A stretch of 63,574 bases of DNA, counting the filler, from Candidatus Woesearchaeota archaeon (GTDB taxonomy: Archaea > Nanobdellota > Nanobdellia > Woesearchaeales > GCA-2687795): NCBI GenBank assembly GCA_030753365.1. It is 5 parts of 5 records of this genome, joined end to end, with 100 filler letters (N's around TTAATTAATTAA, not from the genome) between each part and the next. Parts side by side here need not be neighbours in the genome. Positions count along the whole stretch, not along the records: positions 1 to 10,168 come from JASMCJ010000026.1; 4 more parts are not named here. The stretch is one strand, 5' to 3'. The notes below the pieces were generated by a model that saw nothing but the letters and a program-made list of their open reading frames with translations, had not been told where the DNA came from and ran no database searches. Shown piece after piece: positions 471 to 58,708 of the stretch (position 1 is the first letter of the stretch; the number at the start of each line of letters is the position of its first letter). The position numbers and the translations under genes are program-made.

Positions 471-1013
471 ATGGCAGGAGGAAAATTCATAACACTTGTT
501 ATCTCATTATTATTTGCTTTCTTAGCTTTAATATCATTTGGATTTAGACTGCCAGTTTATCTCAGGCAACAAATTCTTTTAATCTTTTTTCTGGCTTTTA
601 TCTCAATCATAATGTCAGTAGGTGTTTATCATAATAAAAACTGGGCATGGACACTCTCAGGTATAGTTCTTCTTATAATACTTATAAATCTCTTTTATGC
701 ATACCTTAAAGTACCAAGAGGATTCATTTTATTCGGAACAGCCACCTTTTTCAGTTCAATCAGTCTATTCATGTCAATGGTATCCCTGAAAAAGAAAAGG
801 TTCAGGAAAGAGTTTGATGACTACACAGAAGAGTCTGAATCAGTATCAACAGAATTCACTCCAGGCAAATACATTGCCAGCGAAACAGGCAAAAGATTTC
901 ACACACCCAAATGCCAATGGGCAGAAAAAATTAATAAAGACAAGGCAATCTGGTTTGACTCAGAAGAAGAAGCAGTCTCAAAAGGTTATGAAAGAGATAA
1001 GTGTATAGGTTAA
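471..1013 (+). CDS. Membrane protein (about 4 TM) with C-terminal Ada-like metal-binding domain
   Basis: Hydrophobic N-half; C-terminal YIASETGKRFHTPKCQWA...FDSEEEAVSKGYERDKC; ATG at 471 preferred to TTG at 459. Confidence 0.65.
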   Translation: MAGGKFITLVISLLFAFLALISFGFRLPVYLRQQILLIFFLAFISIIMSVGVYHNKNWAWTLSGIVLLIILINLFYAYLKVPRGFILFGTATFFSSISLFMSMVSLKKKRFRKEFDDYTEESESVSTEFTPGKYIASETGKRFHTPKCQWAEKINKDKAIWFDSEEEAVSKGYERDKCIG

Positions 1014-1114
1014 TTATTTAGTTTGGGTTTTATACCCCGATGCTTGCATCGGCTTAATACGCAAACTAAATACTAAAAATACCCCGCAGCTTGCTGCGAT
1101 TGGGATTTTTTATT
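1012..1114. repeat. 103-bp palindromic dispersed repeat, copy 1 (REP/PATE-like)
   Basis: Exact reverse complement of 42919-43021; contains hairpins CCGATGC-TT-GCATCGG and CGCAGC-TT-GCTGCG, each within an ATACCCCG-initiated motif. Confidence 0.95.
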
Positions 1115-1179: not shown

Positions 1180-1869
1180 GTGGGTGTTTTTAATAAAGAG
1201 GAATTTAATAGTTTTGTTCTAGATAATAGTATTGTTGGTTTCTTTGAAAAACCTATAACATTAAAATCTGGCAGGATGTCAAACTGGTATGTAAACTGGC
1301 GAGACATTGCAGAAGATGTATTCTTAATGGACCAATTAACAAATTATGTTATTGCTTTTACAAAAGGCTTAGGATTAGAACCAGACTGTTTCTATGGTGT
1401 ACCAGAAGGTGCAACCAAACTAGGAACTCTTACACAAGATAAATGGGCAAAGCAATCTCCATACTACTCTCAAGGAAGCCACGTTCTTCCCATGGGCAGA
1501 GGAAAACATAAAGACCATGGAGCAGCAAAAGACAAATATTTTGTTGGTGTGCCAAAGGGAAATGTCATTGTTTTAGAGGATGTAACAACAACTGGTGATT
1601 CTTTGTTATCAACAATTGATTATCTCATAGAAGCAAAAGTTTCTATAATTGCAGCGTTTGGTCTAACAAATAGGATGGAATTAAGAGATGATAAACAAAG
1701 TGTTCAGCAAGCTGTGGAAGCTAAGGGCATTCCATATCATGCATTAAGCAATGCGCTTCAGCTATTACCCTTAGCATATAAAACACATCAACCAGGAGAA
1801 GAGATTGCCAAAGCCATAGAACAAGAGTTTCAACAAGTAGGAGTTGAAAAACTAATTTTACTGCAATGA
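1180..1869 (+). CDS. pyrE: Orotate phosphoribosyltransferase
   Basis: ITLKSGRMSNWYVN, KHKDHG loop, PRPP motif VLEDVTTTGDS; GGAGGTGA RBS; next to pyrD and pyrF. Confidence 0.85.
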   Translation: MGVFNKEEFNSFVLDNSIVGFFEKPITLKSGRMSNWYVNWRDIAEDVFLMDQLTNYVIAFTKGLGLEPDCFYGVPEGATKLGTLTQDKWAKQSPYYSQGSHVLPMGRGKHKDHGAAKDKYFVGVPKGNVIVLEDVTTTGDSLLSTIDYLIEAKVSIIAAFGLTNRMELRDDKQSVQQAVEAKGIPYHALSNALQLLPLAYKTHQPGEEIAKAIEQEFQQVGVEKLILLQ

Positions 1870-3491
1870 AACTAGGGACCAAAGAAATCAGCGGAAGATT
1901 CACAATCCCTTCTGGAATAGTTACAACAAATGTTTCAGTGTTAAAAAAGATAGCAGATGAAATTCCTGAGATTGGAATTTTAACAACAAAAAGTATTGGG
2001 CCGAAACCAAGAGAAGGCAACAGGGAACCCATCTTTGCTCAATATGCTCCAGACTCTTTCACAAACGCTGTTGGATTAACAAACCCTGGCGCAGAAGAAT
2101 TTGCAAAACAACTCCAAAACTTAAAAATACATAAAGACAAATTTTTGCTAACCTCAATCTTTGGAGCAAACTTAGAAGAGTTTGTCTATGTAGCCGAAAC
2201 TCTTGCACCTTTCTCAGATGGTTTGGAACTAAACTTCTCATGCCCTCATGCACAAGGCTATGGCCAGGTAATCGGGCAGGATAAAGAGCTAGTCTCAAAA
2301 ATCATAAGCGCAATAACAAACAAAACAGACATTCCCATCTTTGCCAAACTAAGTCCAAACATTCCAAATTTAGGTGAAATTTCCAAAGCATGCGCTAACT
2401 CAGGCGCTTATGGCATTACAGCCATAAACACTGCAGGCCCTGGATATCATATGGTTAACGGACACCCAGTCTTAACAAATGAACTAGGCGGCTTATCCGG
2501 AAAAGCAATCCTTCCAATTGGCTTAAAATGTGTAAAAGAAATCTCTGAAGCAGTCAACAGTTTAGAAAAAAAGATAAAAATCATTGCCTGCGGAGGAATA
2601 AGCACAGCGCAGGATATAAGAAACTATGAAGCTGTTGGAGCAAACTTCTTTGGAGTAGGTTCAGCACTCAAAGGTCTGGACTTACAAGAGCTCAAACTTT
2701 ATTTCTCTGAGTTAGGTAAGGATTTACAGCAGAATACAGATAATGCAGTCAGACATTTAAAATCTGACAACAGTATGGGATTTGTTAAATATAAGATTAA
2801 GAAGAAAACAGACCTTGCAGACGATTTAACCATACTGGAATTCAATGATTCAATCAAAGCATATGCCGGGCAGTTTATCTTCTTATGGCTTCCTTCCATT
2901 GGAGAAAAACCTTTCTCTGTTTTAAACAGCCAACCTTTTACAGTTCTTATCCAAGATAAGGGCTGTTTCACCAAAGCCTTGCTTGGCATGAAAGAAGGTG
3001 AAGCTGTTTATGCCAGGGGACCTCATGGAAAAAGAACAAAACCCTTACAACCTGAAAACGATTTAGTATTGATTGGCGGTGGTACTGGCATAGCTTCTTT
3101 GTACCTAATAGCAAAAGAAAATAAAGATCTGAAGGTATATATCTTTTTAGGAGCCAGGGATAAAACTCATCTTGCTTACATAGACCAATTTGAACAGTTA
3201 GGAAATGTTTTTATTTCTACTGAGGATGGCTCACTCGGTTTTAAAGGAAACATTGTTGAGCTGCTTAAAGAACATTTAGAAAAAGGAGAAATCAAAAATC
3301 CTGTCTTCTACAACTGCGGGCCAAAAGGCATGATAAAAGCACTAACAGCTCTGGAAGAACAATATTCTAACAAAGAGCAAATATATTCTTCAATAGATTA
3401 CCTCACAAAATGTGGCATAGGCATCTGTGGCAGTTGTGCAACAGAAGATGGAAGAAGGTCCTGCGTTGATGGGACTTTTTTAATAAAATAA
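1866..3491 (+). CDS. pyrD: Dihydroorotate dehydrogenase (family 1B) fused to a PyrK-like electron-transfer domain
   Basis: TTKS, NAVGLTNPG, ELNFSCPH, KLSPN, AINT, GGLSG; C-half has KPFS, GGGTG, CGP and the 2Fe-2S motif CGIGICGSC...C..G. Confidence 0.9.
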   Translation: MKLGTKEISGRFTIPSGIVTTNVSVLKKIADEIPEIGILTTKSIGPKPREGNREPIFAQYAPDSFTNAVGLTNPGAEEFAKQLQNLKIHKDKFLLTSIFGANLEEFVYVAETLAPFSDGLELNFSCPHAQGYGQVIGQDKELVSKIISAITNKTDIPIFAKLSPNIPNLGEISKACANSGAYGITAINTAGPGYHMVNGHPVLTNELGGLSGKAILPIGLKCVKEISEAVNSLEKKIKIIACGGISTAQDIRNYEAVGANFFGVGSALKGLDLQELKLYFSELGKDLQQNTDNAVRHLKSDNSMGFVKYKIKKKTDLADDLTILEFNDSIKAYAGQFIFLWLPSIGEKPFSVLNSQPFTVLIQDKGCFTKALLGMKEGEAVYARGPHGKRTKPLQPENDLVLIGGGTGIASLYLIAKENKDLKVYIFLGARDKTHLAYIDQFEQLGNVFISTEDGSLGFKGNIVELLKEHLEKGEIKNPVFYNCGPKGMIKALTALEEQYSNKEQIYSSIDYLTKCGIGICGSCATEDGRRSCVDGTFLIK

Positions 3492-3509
3492 AATTTTGGA
3501 GGATGAAAA

Positions 3510-4409
3510 ATGAAATTTTTAGAAAAATGGTTAGAAGCAGTAAATAAAAAAAATTCAGTTTTATGCGCAGGATTAGACCCTGCAGAATTCGAAATGGAAA
3601 GAGGAGAAAAAGGATTGCCAGAAGGTATTGATAAAAAAGAATGGTCTTTAAGATATATTGAGGCTGTTGCACCTTATTGTGCAGCCATAAAACCTAATAT
3701 TCAATATTGGAAAGGAGGAGGAGATTTAAAAGATTTACAAGAGATCTGTGAATTCGCTCGATCTAAGGGTTTAGTTATTATTGATGATAGTAAGCTGGCA
3801 GATATCGGTTCAACAAACGAGGCTGGCGTGTTTTATGCTTCTCAAAGAGTAGGTGCAGTGACTTTAGCTTTGTTTGCAGGAAACATGAATGAAGCGCCTG
3901 AACAATTAGAAAAATGGCGTGTAGGCGGAATTCATATGTGTTTGATGAGCAATCCAGAATATGAAAGAGAAAAAAACAAACCAGTAAAAGTGGATCCAGA
4001 TGATGGTTATGATAAAGATGATATCATTGAAATTCCAGGTCTTGGAGGACCTCATGTAAGACAATATATCCAATTAGCTCATGATGCAAAGAAATTTGGT
4101 TTAGATGGTATTGTTATCGGAGCTCCAAGTAAATCTGATCCAGAAAAAGGAATAAAAGGAAATCATATACAGGAATCAGAGATTGCAAAAGCAAGACAGT
4201 ATGTTGGAGACAATATGCTTGTTTTACTTCCAGGAGTAGGCGCACAAGGTGGAGAAGCAGGTGCAATTTGGAAATATTTTGATAAAGATAAAGTTATTGT
4301 CAATGTTGGAAGATCATTAATGCTTCCAAATGGTTCAAACTCAACACCAGAACAACAAGCTGAAACTGCAAAACAATATCAAGAAATGTTGAATGGTTTA
4401 AGAGAATGA
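3510..4409 (+). CDS. pyrF: Orotidine-5'-phosphate decarboxylase
   Basis: LCAGLDP, IKPN, DSKLADIGSTN (DxKxxDIxxT), LLPGVGAQGG, VNVGRS. Confidence 0.92.
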   Translation: MKFLEKWLEAVNKKNSVLCAGLDPAEFEMERGEKGLPEGIDKKEWSLRYIEAVAPYCAAIKPNIQYWKGGGDLKDLQEICEFARSKGLVIIDDSKLADIGSTNEAGVFYASQRVGAVTLALFAGNMNEAPEQLEKWRVGGIHMCLMSNPEYEREKNKPVKVDPDDGYDKDDIIEIPGLGGPHVRQYIQLAHDAKKFGLDGIVIGAPSKSDPEKGIKGNHIQESEIAKARQYVGDNMLVLLPGVGAQGGEAGAIWKYFDKDKVIVNVGRSLMLPNGSNSTPEQQAETAKQYQEMLNGLRE

Positions 4410-12132: not shown

Positions 12133-12612
12133 CTACCCAAAATACCCTAACTCTTCTTGTATATCAGTATGGTTTACCCAGGTATCTTTCATTTTTCTTG
12201 CATGAGTGAGAATGTGCTGTTTTAGCTCAGGCAAATTCTTGAAAGCTTCATTGATAAAAGTTGCTTCTTCTTCTTCAGTGGAATGTATTCCCAACAACAA
12301 GGCAGACTTGTTCATAAGCATCAATTTCTTGTAAGTCATGTACAGCTTTTCCTTTTCTTCATCTTCAAGGAATTTGCATTCATGCATGCTGGCAATGGAA
12401 GCTGTATCAGGCTGTAATGAATTTTCTATTATCTCGCAGAAAAAGTCAATTTTCTCACTTATCTTTCTTCTGATATCGCTTAATAACAAATCATCTCGTT
12501 CTATTGTGCTTAACTCAAACTCTGAGTCAAGCTTTTCAAGGGCTGGAAGCTTGTATAACTTCTTATAATGCTTATATTTATTTTTTATATGCTCTTCTAC
12601 CATGTTATTCAA
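12133..12612 (-). CDS. Hypothetical helical protein
   Basis: 159-aa ORF with typical composition; no motif recognised. Confidence 0.6.
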   Translation of the reverse strand: MNNMVEEHIKNKYKHYKKLYKLPALEKLDSEFELSTIERDDLLLSDIRRKISEKIDFFCEIIENSLQPDTASIASMHECKFLEDEEKEKLYMTYKKLMLMNKSALLLGIHSTEEEEATFINEAFKNLPELKQHILTHARKMKDTWVNHTDIQEELGYFG

Positions 12613-12625
12613 CGAAAATGGGTCA

Positions 12626-12707
12626 ATACCCCTGAGTTTGCTCAGGTTTTATACTGTCCATTTTCTGGAGTAAAAATGCCTGCAGTTTGCTGCTATTGGG
12701 ATTTTTA
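12626..12707. repeat. Degenerate copy of the REP/PATE-like element
   Basis: ATACCCCTGAG-TTTG-CTCAGG ... TAAAAATGCCTGCAGTTTGCTGCTATTGGGATTTTTA versus copy 1 TAAAAATACCCCGCAGCTTGCTGCGATTGGGATTTTTTA. Confidence 0.75.
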
Positions 12708-12787
12708 CTTGATATAATTACATACTTGTTTTAATATCTTTCTAATTTTCCCAAAGGTTTATAATATTAATCTGTTGCTTTAAACAT

Positions 12788-20911: not shown

Positions 20912-21823
20912 ATGATTAATTATTTTAAGAAGACGCCAAAGGATGAGAGCCTTAGAAAACTTAGCAAGTTTGAGAAAGGATGCTGGATTGAGGTAATTGA
21001 CCCTTCAGAAAAGGAGTTAAGTTATCTTCACAAAACTTTTGATTTAGACAAACAAAACCTTATTTCTGGAACTGATAAAAATGAAGTTCCAAGGGTTGAG
21101 TTTGATGATAAAGATTTGTATGTTATACTAAAGATAATTTCTCCAGATGATAAAAAAGAATTGCATACTTTTTTGATAATCATAACGAACGATTTTGTGC
21201 TGACTTTGTCTGAACATAGGCCGGATTTTATGGAGAAAATCTTTGAAGACAAAATAGGGGTCATAACTACTCAAAAACCGAAGTGCCTTTTGAAATTGTT
21301 TTCATTGATAAACAAGGATTTTGAGAGGTCAACGCTTGCGGTGGTGAGGTCGGTTAACACAAAGAGGGAAGCTATAACTAATTTATCTGACAGAGACATA
21401 AAAGCATTGCTTGAGCAGGAAAGCATACTTAACAATTTCGTTTCGTCGTATCATTATATTAATCTTTTATATCAAAGAATAGTAAAGAATGTGAAATTTT
21501 TTGAGGAAGATAAAGAGTTTATAAAGGATTTGATTATTGAATCGCAGCAGGGGCTTGACCTTTGTAAATCTTCATTGAGAACTATATCTAATATGAGGGA
21601 CCATTTTGTGATATTATTATCCAATAAGCTTAATAGAGTGATTACTTTGCTTACAATATTTACAGTGTTCATAAGCGTGCCTGCAGCAATATCGGGCATT
21701 TATGGAATGAATCTTGGACTGCCTTTGCAGAATAATCCTTTTGCTTTTTATTATCTTGCGGCCCTGATTGTGGTTATATGGATAGGGTTTATAGTATTTT
21801 TTAAGAAGAATAGAATTCTTTAG
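20912..21823 (+). CDS. corA: CorA-family Mg2+/Co2+ transporter
   Basis: YGMN signature between two C-terminal TMs. Confidence 0.92.
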   Translation: MINYFKKTPKDESLRKLSKFEKGCWIEVIDPSEKELSYLHKTFDLDKQNLISGTDKNEVPRVEFDDKDLYVILKIISPDDKKELHTFLIIITNDFVLTLSEHRPDFMEKIFEDKIGVITTQKPKCLLKLFSLINKDFERSTLAVVRSVNTKREAITNLSDRDIKALLEQESILNNFVSSYHYINLLYQRIVKNVKFFEEDKEFIKDLIIESQQGLDLCKSSLRTISNMRDHFVILLSNKLNRVITLLTIFTVFISVPAAISGIYGMNLGLPLQNNPFAFYYLAALIVVIWIGFIVFFKKNRIL

Positions 21824-21876
21824 ATTGAGAAATATAAATAAAGTTTATTAATCATTATTTGATTATATAATTTAAA

Positions 21877-22866
21877 ATGCACAAAATAAAACAACAACCT
21901 GAGGATTTCATTGTGAAGGAAGTAAGCAATGTAGATGTTAATGGTACTGGCGAGTATAATTATTTCACTTTGAAAAAGGAGAATTATGGAACTCTCAGGG
22001 CAGTTGAAACTATTGCAAAATCTTTAAGGATTCCTGTTAAATTCATTGGATTTGCTGGCAATAAAGATAAGGTGGCTGTTACAGAACAGGTTGTTTCTGT
22101 TAAAAGTAGAAGTAGGAAAGAAGTTGAAAGGTTGAAATTAAAAGATATAAAGTTAGTTTACTTAGGAGAGGGAAAAAAGCCTGTTTCTTTAGGTGATTTA
22201 TTGGGTAATGAGTTTGTGATTACTGTGAGAAATCTTACTAATAAAGAATTGAGAAGTTTTGAGGAGAAGGTTGGAAAAAAGTTATTAGTTCCTAATTATT
22301 TTGGGGAGCAGAGATTTTCTGATAATAATCAGGTTATTGGGAAATGCATTGTTAAAAAAGATTTTAAGAAAGCGGTTGAATTAATCTTAGAAAGTAATTC
22401 TGATTATAAAAGAGAAATTAATGATATTTTGAAGAAGAATAAGAATGATTTTGTGGGAGCTTTAAGAGCAGTAAATAAAAAGTTGTTGAAGCTTTATGTG
22501 CATGCATACCAATCTTTTATATGGAATGAAACTGTTGAAAAATATATTAAGAAAAATGGACTGAAAGATGTTAAGATTCCTATAATTGGGTTTGGAACAG
22601 AAATAAATGATAAGGAAATAGAAAGTATTGTTTCAAATATAATGGAAAGAGAAGAGTTAACTTCAAGGGATTTTATCATAAGAGAGTTGCCGGAGCTTAG
22701 CGTTGAAGGCAAGGAAAGAAACATGGTTGTAAAACCTGATAATTTTGAGGTTAATAACAAAGGGAAGGATAAGCTGAATAAAGGTAAGAGTAAAGTTGTG
22801 TTAAGCTTTAGGCTTCCTAAGGGCTGTTATGCTACGATTGTTATTGAGTGGCTGTTTAATAGCTAG
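21877..22866 (+). CDS. truD: tRNA pseudouridine(13) synthase
   Basis: PEDF.V.E, AGNKDK.AVTEQ, GNEF, PNYFGEQRF, F.LPKG.YAT. Confidence 0.95.
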   Translation: MHKIKQQPEDFIVKEVSNVDVNGTGEYNYFTLKKENYGTLRAVETIAKSLRIPVKFIGFAGNKDKVAVTEQVVSVKSRSRKEVERLKLKDIKLVYLGEGKKPVSLGDLLGNEFVITVRNLTNKELRSFEEKVGKKLLVPNYFGEQRFSDNNQVIGKCIVKKDFKKAVELILESNSDYKREINDILKKNKNDFVGALRAVNKKLLKLYVHAYQSFIWNETVEKYIKKNGLKDVKIPIIGFGTEINDKEIESIVSNIMEREELTSRDFIIRELPELSVEGKERNMVVKPDNFEVNNKGKDKLNKGKSKVVLSFRLPKGCYATIVIEWLFNS

Positions 22867-26737: not shown

Positions 26738-27523
26738 GTGGATAGAGATAAGAGTATTCTTTTTGTTAATGATCCTCATGGAAATATTTATGATGGTGAT
26801 TCTGAAGGAAAAACCCAGTTTGGAGATGTTGCAAATACATTCTCTAATAATGATGTTCTAGCTGGAGTGCTTGAGAAAATATTAAATGGAACAGAAGAAG
26901 AATTCACTTCTTCAAGAAATACATATATGACTCCTTCTGGAGAAGAGAGGATTGCAGACACTACTATAAGGAAACTTTATGGTGGCGCAACTATAGATAT
27001 TCGTGTTCATGATAAATCTGAGATTAAGGATGAGTTAACAGAGCTTTATAATCGTAACTTTTTTGAGCATGTACTTTTTCGTGAGATTAGTAAGGCTATG
27101 AGAGAAAAACAGCCCGTATCTTTTGTGTCTATTGATTTAGGTGAATTTAAGAAGGTTAATGATACATATGGCCATGATATAGGAGATAAGGTATTAAAAG
27201 AAACTGCTGTCTTATTGACCCGAAATACAAGAAGGGGAGATTATGTGGCAAGAATAAGCGGAGATGAGTTTGTAGTTCTCTGTCCGGATACAGATGAAAA
27301 AGGAGCGGAAAGAGTAAAGGAGAAGTTATTGTATGGACAGGTGAATCATAATGAATATATTTCTGATGATATACTAAAAATAAAGATGGATATAGGCATG
27401 GAAACAAGGAGGTTTGCAGAAGATGTTGATCCAGAAGAAGTGGTGAAACGTATGAGGAAAGAAGCGGATATAAAGATGTATGAGGAAAAAAGAAGGAGTA
27501 AAGAGGAAAAAGGCATAGATTAG
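26738..27523 (+). CDS. GGDEF-domain (diguanylate-cyclase-like) protein; start uncertain
   Basis: DELTELYNR, FKKVNDTYGHDIGD, RRGD I-site, SGDEF, ADIKMYEEK. Confidence 0.85.
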   Translation: MDRDKSILFVNDPHGNIYDGDSEGKTQFGDVANTFSNNDVLAGVLEKILNGTEEEFTSSRNTYMTPSGEERIADTTIRKLYGGATIDIRVHDKSEIKDELTELYNRNFFEHVLFREISKAMREKQPVSFVSIDLGEFKKVNDTYGHDIGDKVLKETAVLLTRNTRRGDYVARISGDEFVVLCPDTDEKGAERVKEKLLYGQVNHNEYISDDILKIKMDIGMETRRFAEDVDPEEVVKRMRKEADIKMYEEKRRSKEEKGID

Positions 27524-32652: not shown

Positions 32653-33723
32653 TTATTCAACAAACTTTGGAACATATTTTGCTTCTTTGAGTGTTCCTTC
32701 TTTTAGAAGTTCTCTAACCAAGGGTAGATTATCAATACCTACTTTGCCAACGTAAAGTGTTCTAAAGTCTCCGTCTGTTTCAGCAAAGTCTCTTACTTTT
32801 ACAAGGCCTTCTAAATAGACATGGTCTTTAATATAGCCACCGGCTCTATGTGCTCTAACTGAAAGGTCCCATGCCTGGTCATCTGTTAGTTCATAGTTCT
32901 TAAGCCTGTCAAATGTTTCGCTGAAATCTAATCCTTTACATACAGAATCAACAGCTATAACTCTTCCTGCATAATTTCTCATTACTTCCTTATTAGTGTT
33001 GCCTATAACTTCTTCGAAGTATGATGTTAATCCTTCCTCTGTAGGAAGGTATCCTGGCAAGCCTATTGCGAATATCTTAAGAGGCTGTTCATATCCATTA
33101 GTAGCTCTTAAGGCGTGCACATCAACTTCATGAATACCTGCTCTTGTAAGATCTATATCAGGGAAACCTCTATCTTTGCATACAGTAATTCTTTTTTCTT
33201 CAGGATAAGCAGTGGTTAATTTCTTGTCTGAGAACTCAACCTGCCAATCAGTTATGTCATTATTAGCTAGAGCTTCTTCTAAGGCTTTTTTAATCATATC
33301 GGATGGAACGTTTTTTTCAAATTCAATGTTTGGAATCTGTCTAAGTAAACTATCTGCATAACCTACTAATTGTTCATTTGGGATTCCATAAATTGTTGAA
33401 CTAGCTTCCCTAACAATGTCTTCATTCCCTAAATTTTCTATAATTCTGTTTTCAAGTAATGTATTCCTTCTTTTCTGCTGAAACATTTGTCCTAGAGCAT
33501 CATCTGGTATTTCAATAGAATTTAGCATGTTTCTGATTTCATTAGGGTCATATTCTAGGTCTTTGTATTGAAATTTAGGATTCTGTGTTTTACCAGCTAG
33601 AAATTCTTCTTTTTGCTCTTTTTCATTGCCATTAACTGGGTCAATATAATGTAATGGATTTGTATTCTTAGCACTATCCATAAGAGCTTCATCCAGTGAA
33701 TTATAAACTTGTATATTTGTCAT
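32653..33723 (-). CDS. DUF1704 (Tyr/Phe carboxypeptidase-like, MATCAP-related) metallopeptidase
   Basis: NPKFQY, HEVDVH (HExxxH), TEEGL, KDHVYLEG, LYVGKV. Confidence 0.8.
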   Translation of the reverse strand: MTNIQVYNSLDEALMDSAKNTNPLHYIDPVNGNEKEQKEEFLAGKTQNPKFQYKDLEYDPNEIRNMLNSIEIPDDALGQMFQQKRRNTLLENRIIENLGNEDIVREASSTIYGIPNEQLVGYADSLLRQIPNIEFEKNVPSDMIKKALEEALANNDITDWQVEFSDKKLTTAYPEEKRITVCKDRGFPDIDLTRAGIHEVDVHALRATNGYEQPLKIFAIGLPGYLPTEEGLTSYFEEVIGNTNKEVMRNYAGRVIAVDSVCKGLDFSETFDRLKNYELTDDQAWDLSVRAHRAGGYIKDHVYLEGLVKVRDFAETDGDFRTLYVGKVGIDNLPLVRELLKEGTLKEAKYVPKFVE

Positions 33724-42241: not shown

Positions 42242-42967
42242 ATGAGTTGGTTCAATAAACAAAGCCTGGGACATTTAGAAGAATTCATAGAAAAGGATTT
42301 AAAAGATTTCTTAGAGTTAGACAGATTTTTTATAAGAAGTTATCACAATATAATCACATATGCTCCAAACAAGAACGGAATTCCTTTTGAAGACTTAAGA
42401 AAAGATATAAGCGAACTGGCAAGATTTGCTGACTACTTATGGTTATGGTTCAACAAGACAGATAACAACCTCCGCTCTCTGCTTAGCCTTCTTGAGAAGG
42501 ACTTCAAAATTCTCCAAAGAGGCCTTTCTAAGATAACAAAAACATGGCTTATAACCAAAAGATCAGGCTTTTTTAAAAGAGATATAAGCGATAAGAATTT
42601 CAAAAGATTATATCAATTAGTTTCACTCACAAAGAACAGCATTAGCTCTTCTCTTGGAGAGATTATAATTTTAAAGAACAGGCTGAACAGTTCTACTACA
42701 AAATCATTTCTCCATGAATGCAAGGAACTGCTTAAAAATAAAGGCTTAATACAGGAGACAATACGAGATCATAGGCAAGGAATGGGACAAGCTTTAAGAC
42801 AGTACGCACGTTACCTTAAAGAAACAAACTCTAAATTGGAAAGCCTTGCAGGGCTTATAGTCACGCCTTTGAGAAATATCTTGTTTGAGATAACCGAAAT
42901 TGACAAGAATTTTGAAATAATAAAAAATCCCAATCGCAGCAAGCTGCGGGGTATTTTTAGTATTTAG
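42242..42967 (+). CDS. Hypothetical helical protein whose last codons lie within the repeat
   Basis: 241-aa ORF; C-terminal IKNPNRSKLRGIFSI and stop are encoded by 42919-42967. Confidence 0.6.
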   Translation: MSWFNKQSLGHLEEFIEKDLKDFLELDRFFIRSYHNIITYAPNKNGIPFEDLRKDISELARFADYLWLWFNKTDNNLRSLLSLLEKDFKILQRGLSKITKTWLITKRSGFFKRDISDKNFKRLYQLVSLTKNSISSSLGEIIILKNRLNSSTTKSFLHECKELLKNKGLIQETIRDHRQGMGQALRQYARYLKETNSKLESLAGLIVTPLRNILFEITEIDKNFEIIKNPNRSKLRGIFSI

Positions 42968-43021
42968 TTTGCGTATTAAGCCGATGCAAGCATCGGGGTA
43001 TAAAACCCAAACTAAATAATT
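42919..43021. repeat. 103-bp palindromic dispersed repeat, copy 2 (inverted)
   Basis: Base-for-base reverse complement of 1012-1114, on a different contig. Confidence 0.95.
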
Positions 43022-43039
43022 TATAAATTTTATTTAGAT

Positions 43040-57222: not shown

Positions 57223-57750
57223 CAGCTTGCTGCGATAATCTTTAATAGTTTAGTTACTTTATCTCTGTAATGAAAGTTCGTAAAGCTTGTCATTGTTCTT
57301 ATCGCATTCGATATCATATGGTTTTTGTTGTTAAGTACAGAAGAGGTTTAGTTACTTCTCAAGTTTTTGATTTTATGAAGCATATTTGTAAGGGGATTGA
57401 AAAAAGATACTTTCTTCGTTTTGATGCTTTAGGTTACGAAAATGATTATATTCACTTAGTGGTTGAGGGTGCTCCTCGTTATTCTCCTTCAAGAATCATG
57501 CAAATCTGTAAAAGTGTTTTGGCAATTCAAGTATTTAAAGAATTTCCCAAGATTAAAGAAGAAGAACTTTGGGGTGGTGAGTTTTGGACTGATGGAGGGC
57601 ATATTGATACTATTGGTGATGGAAGAGGATTAGATGAAGTAAAAAAATATGTCAAAAATCAAGGTAGGGATTCGAGTCAGTTACTTATCTATGAGTTTAT
57701 AGATACCCCGCAGCTTGCTGCGGAGTGAGCGTAGCGAACGGTGGGTATTT
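57223..57750 (+). mobile_element. IS200/IS605-family element (tnpA only), left end cut by the contig break
   Basis: tnpA flanked by CAGCTTGCTGCG (57223-57234) and ATACCCCGCAGCTTGCTGCG (57703-57722). Confidence 0.85.
57270..57728 (+). CDS. tnpA: Y1 HUH transposase TnpA (HUH motif reads Y-I-H)
   Basis: YHMVFVVKYRR, DYIHL, KS, LWGGEFW, KKYVKNQ. Confidence 0.92.
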   Translation: MKVRKACHCSYRIRYHMVFVVKYRRGLVTSQVFDFMKHICKGIEKRYFLRFDALGYENDYIHLVVEGAPRYSPSRIMQICKSVLAIQVFKEFPKIKEEELWGGEFWTDGGHIDTIGDGRGLDEVKKYVKNQGRDSSQLLIYEFIDTPQLAAE

Positions 57751-57757
57751 CATTTAC

Positions 57758-58024: not shown

Positions 58025-58234
58025 AATACAACCCCTATTATCTTCTCTTAAATAACTTTTAGATTAAATATATTCTATAATTATCTTCTGTAATAAGGAG
58101 ATTGGACTAATTATTTAAAGCTTTCTAAAAAAAATAGTTTTCCGTCGGAGATTGTTTATAATAAATATTTACTCTTACATAGGAATGTTAAATTATTAAA
58201 AAAGTTTATATATGATTATCTTCAAAATAGGATT

Positions 58235-58708
58235 ATGTTTAATAATAATAACAATAAGAAGAACAATTCTCATCCTGTGCTAAAGACGAAGATGACCTTT
58301 GGGCAGAGAGCGGCTGACTTGGTTACTATATGGGTGGGCAGTTGGAAATTTATCATTGGATTATTAGTATTCATGATAATATGGATAATGTTGAATATCT
58401 ATATGATAATCAGTGAGTGGGATCCATATCCTTTCATACTTCTTAACTTTGTGCTTTCAATGCTGGCAGCATTCCAGGCTCCTGTAATTCTTATGAGCCA
58501 GAACAGGCAGGCTGAAAGAGAAAGGGTAACAGCAAAATATGATTATTTAATTAATAGGAAAGCTGAAAGAGAGATACAGGCAATAAAAGAAGACCTGGAT
58601 TATATCAAGAACATGGTAAGCAAAAAGAAGGTTAATCTTGCACAAATAAAAATGAGAAAGAAGTCAACATTCAAGCCTTATCAACCAAGAATACCAAAAG
58701 GGCTTTAA
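58235..58708 (+). CDS. DUF1003 membrane protein
   Basis: GQR.AD....VGSW.F, DPYPFILLN, AAFQAPVILMSQNRQ. Confidence 0.9.
   Translation: MFNNNNNKKNNSHPVLKTKMTFGQRAADLVTIWVGSWKFIIGLLVFMIIWIMLNIYMIISEWDPYPFILLNFVLSMLAAFQAPVILMSQNRQAERERVTAKYDYLINRKAEREIQAIKEDLDYIKNMVSKKKVNLAQIKMRKKSTFKPYQPRIPKGL

Follow-up and report, generated by a model that had tools for sequence, protein, structure and literature searches.

A gene-less 99-nt repeat in a small-genome woesearchaeotal archaeon, a probable PATE of an IS200-type transposase

The closest described relatives of the repeat considered here are the homogeneous PATEs of Haloquadratum walsbyi, which have remained mobile even though the tnpA genes of their host are mostly broken (Dyall-Smith et al., 2011, PMC3119063). 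IS200/IS605, the family with which they have near-terminal palindromes in common, is given as the most widespread IS family in archaea, and the Nanobdellota are listed as holding all 27 of the families surveyed (PMC13343696). For IS608, four guide bases 5′ of each hairpin select the cleavage sites through base pairing, while the third base of the cleavage site stays unpaired (PMC3201880), and the +1 base is common to the target and the left end (PMC5934647).

As with the Haloquadratum elements, our repeat is archaeal and of non-coding length, has no terminal inverted repeats but near-terminal palindromes common with IS200/IS605, causes no target duplication, leaves the target outside the element, has strain-specific insertions and gives rise to terminal-only derivatives; unlike them, as far as their published description extends, it is tied to a tnpA-only IS of ~550 bp in a 0.9-Mb genome, its copies are 100% identical, and its left hairpin is surrounded by an outer stem (PMC3119063). 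It is probably a new family of an already known class, PATE. The preliminary description of this DNA had offered as a novelty that such systems are mainly described in bacteria, which does not hold, as PATEs were defined in the archaeon Haloquadratum (PMC3119063); for the DPANN, no published PATE was found in the open-access literature.

With IS608 and ISDra2 the element shares the homology of TnpA, subterminal hairpins, a guide tetranucleotide 5′ of each hairpin, an unpaired A at the third cleavage position and a +1 base that matches the first base of the left end (PMC3201880, PMC5934647); it differs in that it is gene-less, its cognate IS lacks tnpB, the +1 base is T rather than C, and the target is TT(A/G)AT. 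The PATE-like elements of Geobacillus stearothermophilus are likewise gene-less, have ends in common with IS200/IS605 copies, and show target and end motifs that covary with DNA guides (Meers et al., 2023, PMC10055086). These are described for families bearing TnpB or IscB, whereas here no nuclease was found, nor any guide-RNA part above the Rfam cut-off (a scan of positions 900–1250 returned three matches, all far under their gathering scores). Finally, the REP/REPIN repeats associated with RAYT (TnpA-REP) also consist of short hairpins in many copies that are linked to an HUH-Y1 protein (PMC8266576). From these repeats, as they are characterized in the sources compared, the present element departs in its hairpins, which are direct and not inverted, in the absence of GTAG, in its IS200-class protein and in its pentanucleotide cleavage motifs (PMC8266576, 10.1101/279083, PMC3733652).

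The repeat, its copies and its sister family

The window, that is, the whole stretch of 63,574 nucleotides that was analysed, consists of five contigs of the source genome (896,806 bp, 78 contigs, 35.8% GC, 94.5% complete), in which archaeal host genes (aIF-1A, Hef and exosome genes) are present. The repeat had at first been reported as a 103-bp unit occurring as an identical inverted pair. The pair is confirmed (1012–1114 is the reverse complement of 42919–43021 with 0 mismatches, on contigs C26 and C29), and the same is true of the two hairpins in the same orientation (z-score of the fold −5.9, 0/200 shuffles equally stable), of the 11-bp inverted repeat, the two arms of which form the outer stem (Table 1), of the 20-mer shared with the 3′ end of tnpA (1079–1098, 42935–42954 on the minus strand, and 57703–57722; 0.00 expected in 100 shuffles), and of the hairpin part upstream of tnpA, where a 14-nt piece of this 20-mer begins contig C31. 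The unit itself had to be shortened to 99 nt, since the 103-mer begins with bases of the target, which differ among the copies; given that a T flanks both junctions, it may be shifted by one base, so that copy 1 could lie at 1016–1114. It is indeed repeated, but 21 times genome-wide and not twice: 20 copies are identical over their assembled length and the one on contig C22 is 97% identical. The depth of metagenomic contigs over the element is ~20–30x that of the flanks in four runs, a rough value that gives no copy number.

A length of 99 nt leaves no room for a transposase gene. There are no terminal inverted repeats; the palindromes lie near both ends, and the sole long inverted repeat is confined to the left half. 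The right hairpin is supported by covariation among 30 right ends, where 94% of 270 cells are paired and 24 two-sided changes occur (0/500 shuffles as high). A model of the right end has 33 matches in the source genome, 28 of them at E < 1e-7, and an exact 26-mer of the element has 0 matches in viral contigs. The second copy of the window interrupts the 3′ end of ORF 42242–42967, which codes for 241 aa (247 aa without the element). Behind the first copy, positions 1180–4409 hold a pyrimidine synthesis cluster in this small genome (pyrE-like, a dihydroorotate dehydrogenase fused to an NAD-binding domain, and an OMP decarboxylase), and elsewhere in the window the ORF at 32653–33723 matches Pfam MATCAP, the microtubule-associated tyrosine carboxypeptidase family, with 185 bits.

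What had been taken for a decayed copy at 12626–12707 belongs instead to an older sister family, the member in question extending over 100 nt (Table 1): it matches its sisters on contigs C14 and C4 in 85–87 of 103 columns but the main family in only 70 of 105, and it has a left loop of TTTG, not TT. One sister-family PATE (C8:6200–6470, L161) is split by a longer hairpin-rich insert; at another site (C7:3747–3945, L160) a main-family copy immediately follows the right end of an older-family copy and uses the last bases of the latter as part of its target; and at C15:5759–5826 (L159) there is a terminal-only derivative of the cognate IS, its left end fused to its right end through the shared hairpin, as in a core deletion mediated by repeats, which is present in 4/4 runs examined. 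In locus L204 a terminal-only unit is repeated head to tail.

Table 1. Coordinates in the window of the element, its parts, its targets and the related insertion sequence.
Feature	Position	Strand	Basis or remark
Target TTAAT, left cleavage motif (C_L)	1010..1014	+	Host DNA, kept in empty alleles; includes stop codon of ORF 459–1013
PATE main family, copy 1, 99 nt	1015..1113	+	Filled/empty pairs, 21 copies
Outer stem, 5′ arm, encloses left hairpin	1015..1025	+	Fold
Putative left guide TATA, for target TTAAT (TTGAT via T-G wobble)	1031..1034	+	Target tally, left-end survey
Left subterminal hairpin, TT loop	1035..1052	+	Fold
Outer stem, 3′ arm	1062..1072	+	Fold
Putative right guide AATA, for right cleavage motif TTTAT	1078..1081	+	IS covariation
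Right subterminal imperfect hairpin: CCC/GGG foot, 3-nt bulge, 6-bp stem, TT loop	1082..1104	+	Covariation
Right cleavage motif TTTAT (C_R), within element	1109..1113	+	T next in 29/29 distinct right junctions
Older sister PATE, 100 nt; right guide AATG with motif TTTAC; own outer stem	12609..12708	+	Alignment
Empty target TTGAT+T in GGDEF-domain gene 26738–27523 (contig C28)	27132..27137	+	Filled in frame in metagenome loci L026, L041
PATE main family, copy 2; target TAAAT at 43019–43023	42920..43018	-	Identical to copy 1
IS left hairpin remnant at contig start	57223..57234	+	Full left end (target TAAAT, guide TTTA) in L057
tnpA, 152 aa, IS200-type Y1 transposase; Tyr127 and Gln131 present	57270..57728	+	Pfam, NCBIfam, homology
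Empty target TTGAT+T within tnpA	57367..57372	+	Filled in second tnpA copy (L057, contig C72)
IS right end: guide GATA (57702–57705), hairpin identical to that of the PATE, small extra hairpin, cleavage motif TTCAT (57749–57753)	57702..57753	+	20-mer identity

Insertion sites and the pairing of guides with targets

A scan of metagenomes yielded 37 loci, and three distinct sites that are filled in them are empty in the source genome: the GGDEF gene and tnpA (Table 1), and a site on contig C19, filled in locus L049. A fourth pair comes from the same-genus genome G001, in which an ORF of 349 aa (L189:1518–2567) is intact, while its orthologue in the source genome (C60, ~21000–22000, L178) carries the element, with an alignment gap of exactly 99 nt. 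In none of the four pairs is a base gained or lost beyond the 99 nt, nor is there a target duplication. The comparison of empty with filled sites, proposed at the outset as a way of defining the ends, therefore gives a precise insertion with the target pentamer outside the element, and the absence of further copies and of empty alleles, which had been named as what would tell against mobility, is not what was found (21 copies, four filled/empty pairs). The comparison with G001 was usable at C60 alone, both window copies and those on C15, C46, C69 and C71 being too rearranged or divergent there; the flanks of seven metagenome loci (L025, L027/L039, L030, L034, L044, L045 and L052) have no adjoining match in the source genome and were left unscored, and for the C15 copy no empty allele appears in the assembled contigs of four runs.

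The targets at 28 distinct left junctions are TTAAT (17), TTGAT (8), TTTAT (2) and TAAAT (1), and a T follows in 28/28 left and 29/29 right junctions, against 27.6% after TTRAT genome-wide. The junctions share an ATT, so that the sequences by themselves locate the cut only to within 3 nt. We tentatively place it directly after the pentamer, firstly, because in IS608 the preferred +1 base is also the one with which the left end begins (PMC5934647), and secondly, because the base next to the right motif is not constant among the relatives (it varies in 3/71, once among near-identical copies in one genome).

The insertions in tnpA and in the GGDEF gene are in frame, and the same 33 residues are added to both. 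The possibility that an in-frame length is a selected trait of the family was rejected, as it is not conserved in other families: the main element is open in one frame, as are 13% of shuffles in that frame, and among 14 other PATE units the length is divisible by 3 in seven, the frame is open in two, and both apply to one. With regard to the invaded genes, the GGDEF gene (26738–27523) is diguanylate-cyclase-like, with an SGDEF motif and a Pfam score of 124 bits, in an archaeon. The 349-aa ORF has no Pfam family above the cut-off; its motifs resemble those of a LAGLIDADG-type nuclease, and its orthologue in the source genome is broken by the PATE together with a frameshift. The polymorphic C19 site (C19:1450–1650, L185) lies between two repeats that resemble the 3′ arms of tRNAs, for which neither ARAGORN nor Rfam gave a match.

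In the register of IS608, guide base 1 pairs with base 2 of the cleavage site, guide base 2 with base 1, and guide base 4 with base 4. The pairs quoted for IS608 in PMC5934647 agree with it. Applied to the PATE, this register predicts TTAAT, the target found most often, for the left guide TATA and TTTAT for the right guide AATA; the resident IS combines GATA with TTCAT at its right end and TTTA with TAAAT at its left end. The rule could be followed through 80 related IS from GTDB genomes, with 71 scorable right ends. Guide base 1 is complementary to cleavage base 2 in 68 of these 71 (shuffle mean 34; 0/10,000), and three states are seen, GATA/TTCAT, CATA/TTGAT and AATA/TTTAT. Mapped onto a tree of 68 rows (FastTree), the guide base requires 13 changes, the cleavage base 14 and the pair 14, so that guide and cleavage base almost always change jointly. 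The phylogenetically independent pairs all go in the predicted direction but do not reach significance, being too few (5, 3 and 4 pairs; median p 0.06–0.25). Guide bases 4 and 2, too, are exchanged together with their partners (TTTAC or TTCAC accompanies AATG or GATG, and TAAAT accompanies TTTA). The left ends obey the rule with more exceptions: among 38 crudely parsed families, Watson–Crick pairing is found at guide base 1 in 28/38, at guide base 2 in 35/38 and at guide base 4 in 33/38. An RNA hairpin does not explain this left covariation, as the left motif lies outside the element, in host DNA.

Taken with the copy number, the filled and empty sites and the ends that match those of a resident HUH transposase element, these data favour the early proposal of a recently active, TnpA-dependent miniature system, the dependence on TnpA being likely on the strength of the guide/cleavage covariation and the shared ends. 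The 99-nt repeat is in all probability a gene-less mobile element, a homogeneous PATE, likely moved in trans by an IS200-type Y1 (HUH) transposase. Its transposition would be of the single-strand, peel-and-paste type: by analogy with IS608, TnpA would bind both hairpins of the top strand, the guide TATA would pair with TTAAT (or TTGAT) and the guide AATA with TTTAT, and the element would leave as a single-stranded circle, to be inserted 3′ of a pentamer at which T in the +1 position is strongly preferred. The burst would have been driven by an intact allele of the tnpA of the window, and in the source genome the movement has probably stalled, in that the HUH motif of one tnpA copy has a substitution (H60Y), while the other copy, into which a PATE has inserted, ends short of the catalytic Tyr.

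The resident transposase and competing readings

The product of the resident tnpA is homologous to the solved transposases of the ISDra2 type (E 4e-15) and of IS608 (3e-9). Its nearest relatives belong to tnpA-only elements whose records bear the titles Pacearchaeota, Woesearchaeota and Aenigmatarchaeota, followed by bacterial elements with the same ends, and in a crude scan a TnpB-like ORF after tnpA was found in 0/80 relatives. These titles and the size of the genome suggest that the host belongs to the DPANN. The right end of this IS and that of the terminal-only copy on C15 coincide. On the left, the guide of the PATE differs from that of the resident IS (TATA, TTTA), and the interior of the PATE is no simple deletion of the resident IS.

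The first histidine of the HUH motif is replaced by Tyr in the tnpA of the window (codon 60, 57447–57449), while it is His in 86/87 aligned homologues. In IS608, where H64 is the equivalent of this position, mutation of H64 or H66 inactivates TnpA, as reported in PMC3597680, and the window copy is therefore probably not the active helper. A second tnpA copy (L057, C72) keeps His60, has a PATE after codon 34 and breaks off before Tyr127. In the contigs of four runs the 5′ part of tnpA is covered at ~2x the depth of its flanks, position 57372 has junctions into the element, and 57447 has one or the other base; both types of junction at the tnpA site occur in runs X1 and X10, and filled junctions are found in X5 and X7 too. 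The truncated second copy is fused, at 57637, to the reverse complement of the region of the nearby DUF1003 gene (58134–58481), which also has doubled depth, and this fusion is a local duplication or rearrangement. Contig C72 as a whole, considered as a true rearrangement, is more likely an assembly chimera through the repeat, in view of the fact that locus L054 joins the left flank of C72 to the right flank of C54 and that L057 has tnpA on both sides.

That both assembled copies of the cognate tnpA look disabled gives some room to the idea that the repeat is a PATE with a different helper, either the other Y1 transposase of the genome or an unassembled one, the more so as a second, intact-looking Y1 gene exists (C47:4431–4832, L001, 186 aa) and PATE-rich genomes often have no assembled TnpA of this clade. 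The C47 protein, however, is only 32% identical to that of tnpA, the hairpins upstream of its gene are different, two CoA-activase-like ORFs come after it, and none of the 33 matches of the right-end model in the genome falls on C47. Moreover, the 90% cluster of tnpA has 11 members, four of which have a full C-terminus and an intact HUH motif (P0002, P0005, P0007 and P0009), with P0005, P0007 and P0009 at 97–99% identity. P0007 and P0009 could be assembly mosaics; P0005 is no mosaic of the two local copies, and as P0005 and P0002 have three further substitutions they represent a distinct allele. We regard a different helper as unlikely, and, on the sequences at hand, an active cognate helper probably exists nearby in the population even if there is none in the source assembly.

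A second reading would make the repeat a structure maintained by the host, such as a two-way terminator or an RNA-end hairpin at gene ends, copied by some other route. It could account for the two strong hairpins with T-rich tails on both strands, for the many intergenic copies near gene ends and for the weak, sub-threshold Rfam matches to attenuator leaders (29 bits against a cut-off of 55). It agrees poorly with copies inside coding regions (the GGDEF gene, tnpA, and the ORF that is intact in G001), with polymorphic sites, with ends that match an IS200-type element, and with a base outside the element that covaries with the left guide, and we hold it to be very improbable.

Still less can be said for REP/REPIN repeats served by a domesticated RAYT, as half of the initial REP/PATE reading would have it, even though many hairpin repeats and one apparently intact Y1 gene flanked by hairpins are what such a system would present. 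TnpA scores 99.3 bits for the Y1_Tnp domain of Pfam (cut-off 23) and 104.9 bits on the NCBIfam IS200 model (cut-off 55), but only 13.4 bits on the RAYT model (cut-off 80). The Tyr motif is Y-x3-Q and not the Y---NP given for the REP-associated class 2 in 10.1101/279083. The placement of TnpA among IS200 and RAYT clades, suggested earlier as a check, assigns it to IS200; E. coli RayT sits outside its clade, at the tip of a very long branch, on a quick tree with many open forks. There is no GTAG foot, the feet TATA and AATA vary with the cleavage motif, the hairpins are direct without inverted pairs, and the relatives are IS that occur in several copies and at varied sites (one genome has 10 loci). 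The PATE half of the REP/PATE reading is thus retained and its RAYT half is given up as highly improbable. A MITE of a DDE transposase, finally, for which the ATT at both junctions of all copies would be a 3-bp target duplication around a 96-nt unit, is scarcely credible, since there are no terminal inverted repeats, the empty orthologue in G001 lacks 99 nt, and in the sister family, with TTTAT on the left and TTTAC on the right, the supposed ATT duplication breaks exactly where the right guide changes.

Distribution in the order, the outer stem and significance

The right-end model finds matches in 41/151 genomes of the order, and TnpA of the clade (E < 1e-40) is present in 6/151. All six of the latter have right-end matches, an overlap that is in part built in, since every IS brings its own end with it and some of them had served to train the model. 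Many genomes have PATEs but no helper that could be found, for example G056 (34 matches) and G001 (18 matches), so the co-occurrence of hairpin and transposase, on which the preliminary description had made its reading depend, is loose; some helpers are hidden by assembly breaks, given that in G014 a left end and the start of tnpA lie at a contig edge. Two-hairpin units of 90–111 nt and terminal-only forms, with the same layout, occur in loci of these genomes, and the same end layout recurs in archaeal relatives of the tnpA element. G056 (L225–L239) has an independent PATE expansion of at least three families, and G001 (L240–L244) another, of a near-identical family that breaks many contigs.

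A perfect complement of 7–11 bp surrounds the left hairpin in 10 of 14 PATE left ends (a hand-picked set), with sequences that differ between PATE families, some of which are related. Among 12 left ends of autonomous IS the enclosing complement is at most 5 bp (0/12 with an outer stem), and no description of such a stem was found in those parts of the PATE and IS200 literature with which it was compared. It may reflect the way in which PATEs are formed (fold-back copying) or selection. One might go further and see in the DPANN PATEs a separately adapted class of parasites, in which unrelated families would each have gained an outer stem locking the left hairpin, the guide and the first bases after the cut, and in which a family would jump in frame into its own helper gene, its bursts ending by destruction of the helper, while the two broken local tnpA copies, one without the HUH His and the other without the Tyr helix, could form a heterodimer that nicks DNA but does not rejoin it; this we consider speculative and, on balance, doubtful.

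In summary, since the class and the mechanism are known, the finding amounts to one more family and a structural variant that can be tested rather than to a new system. It provides, for a small-genome archaeon, a case of transposition that is very recent and has sites still polymorphic in an ocean population; genes have been hit, among them a GGDEF gene, the 349-aa ORF and the transposase itself. The IS clade constitutes a natural table of guide and target swaps at three positions, which could be tested with oligonucleotides and a 152-aa enzyme, and the element would provide for this a two-ended substrate of 99 nt, approximately as small as such an element can be.
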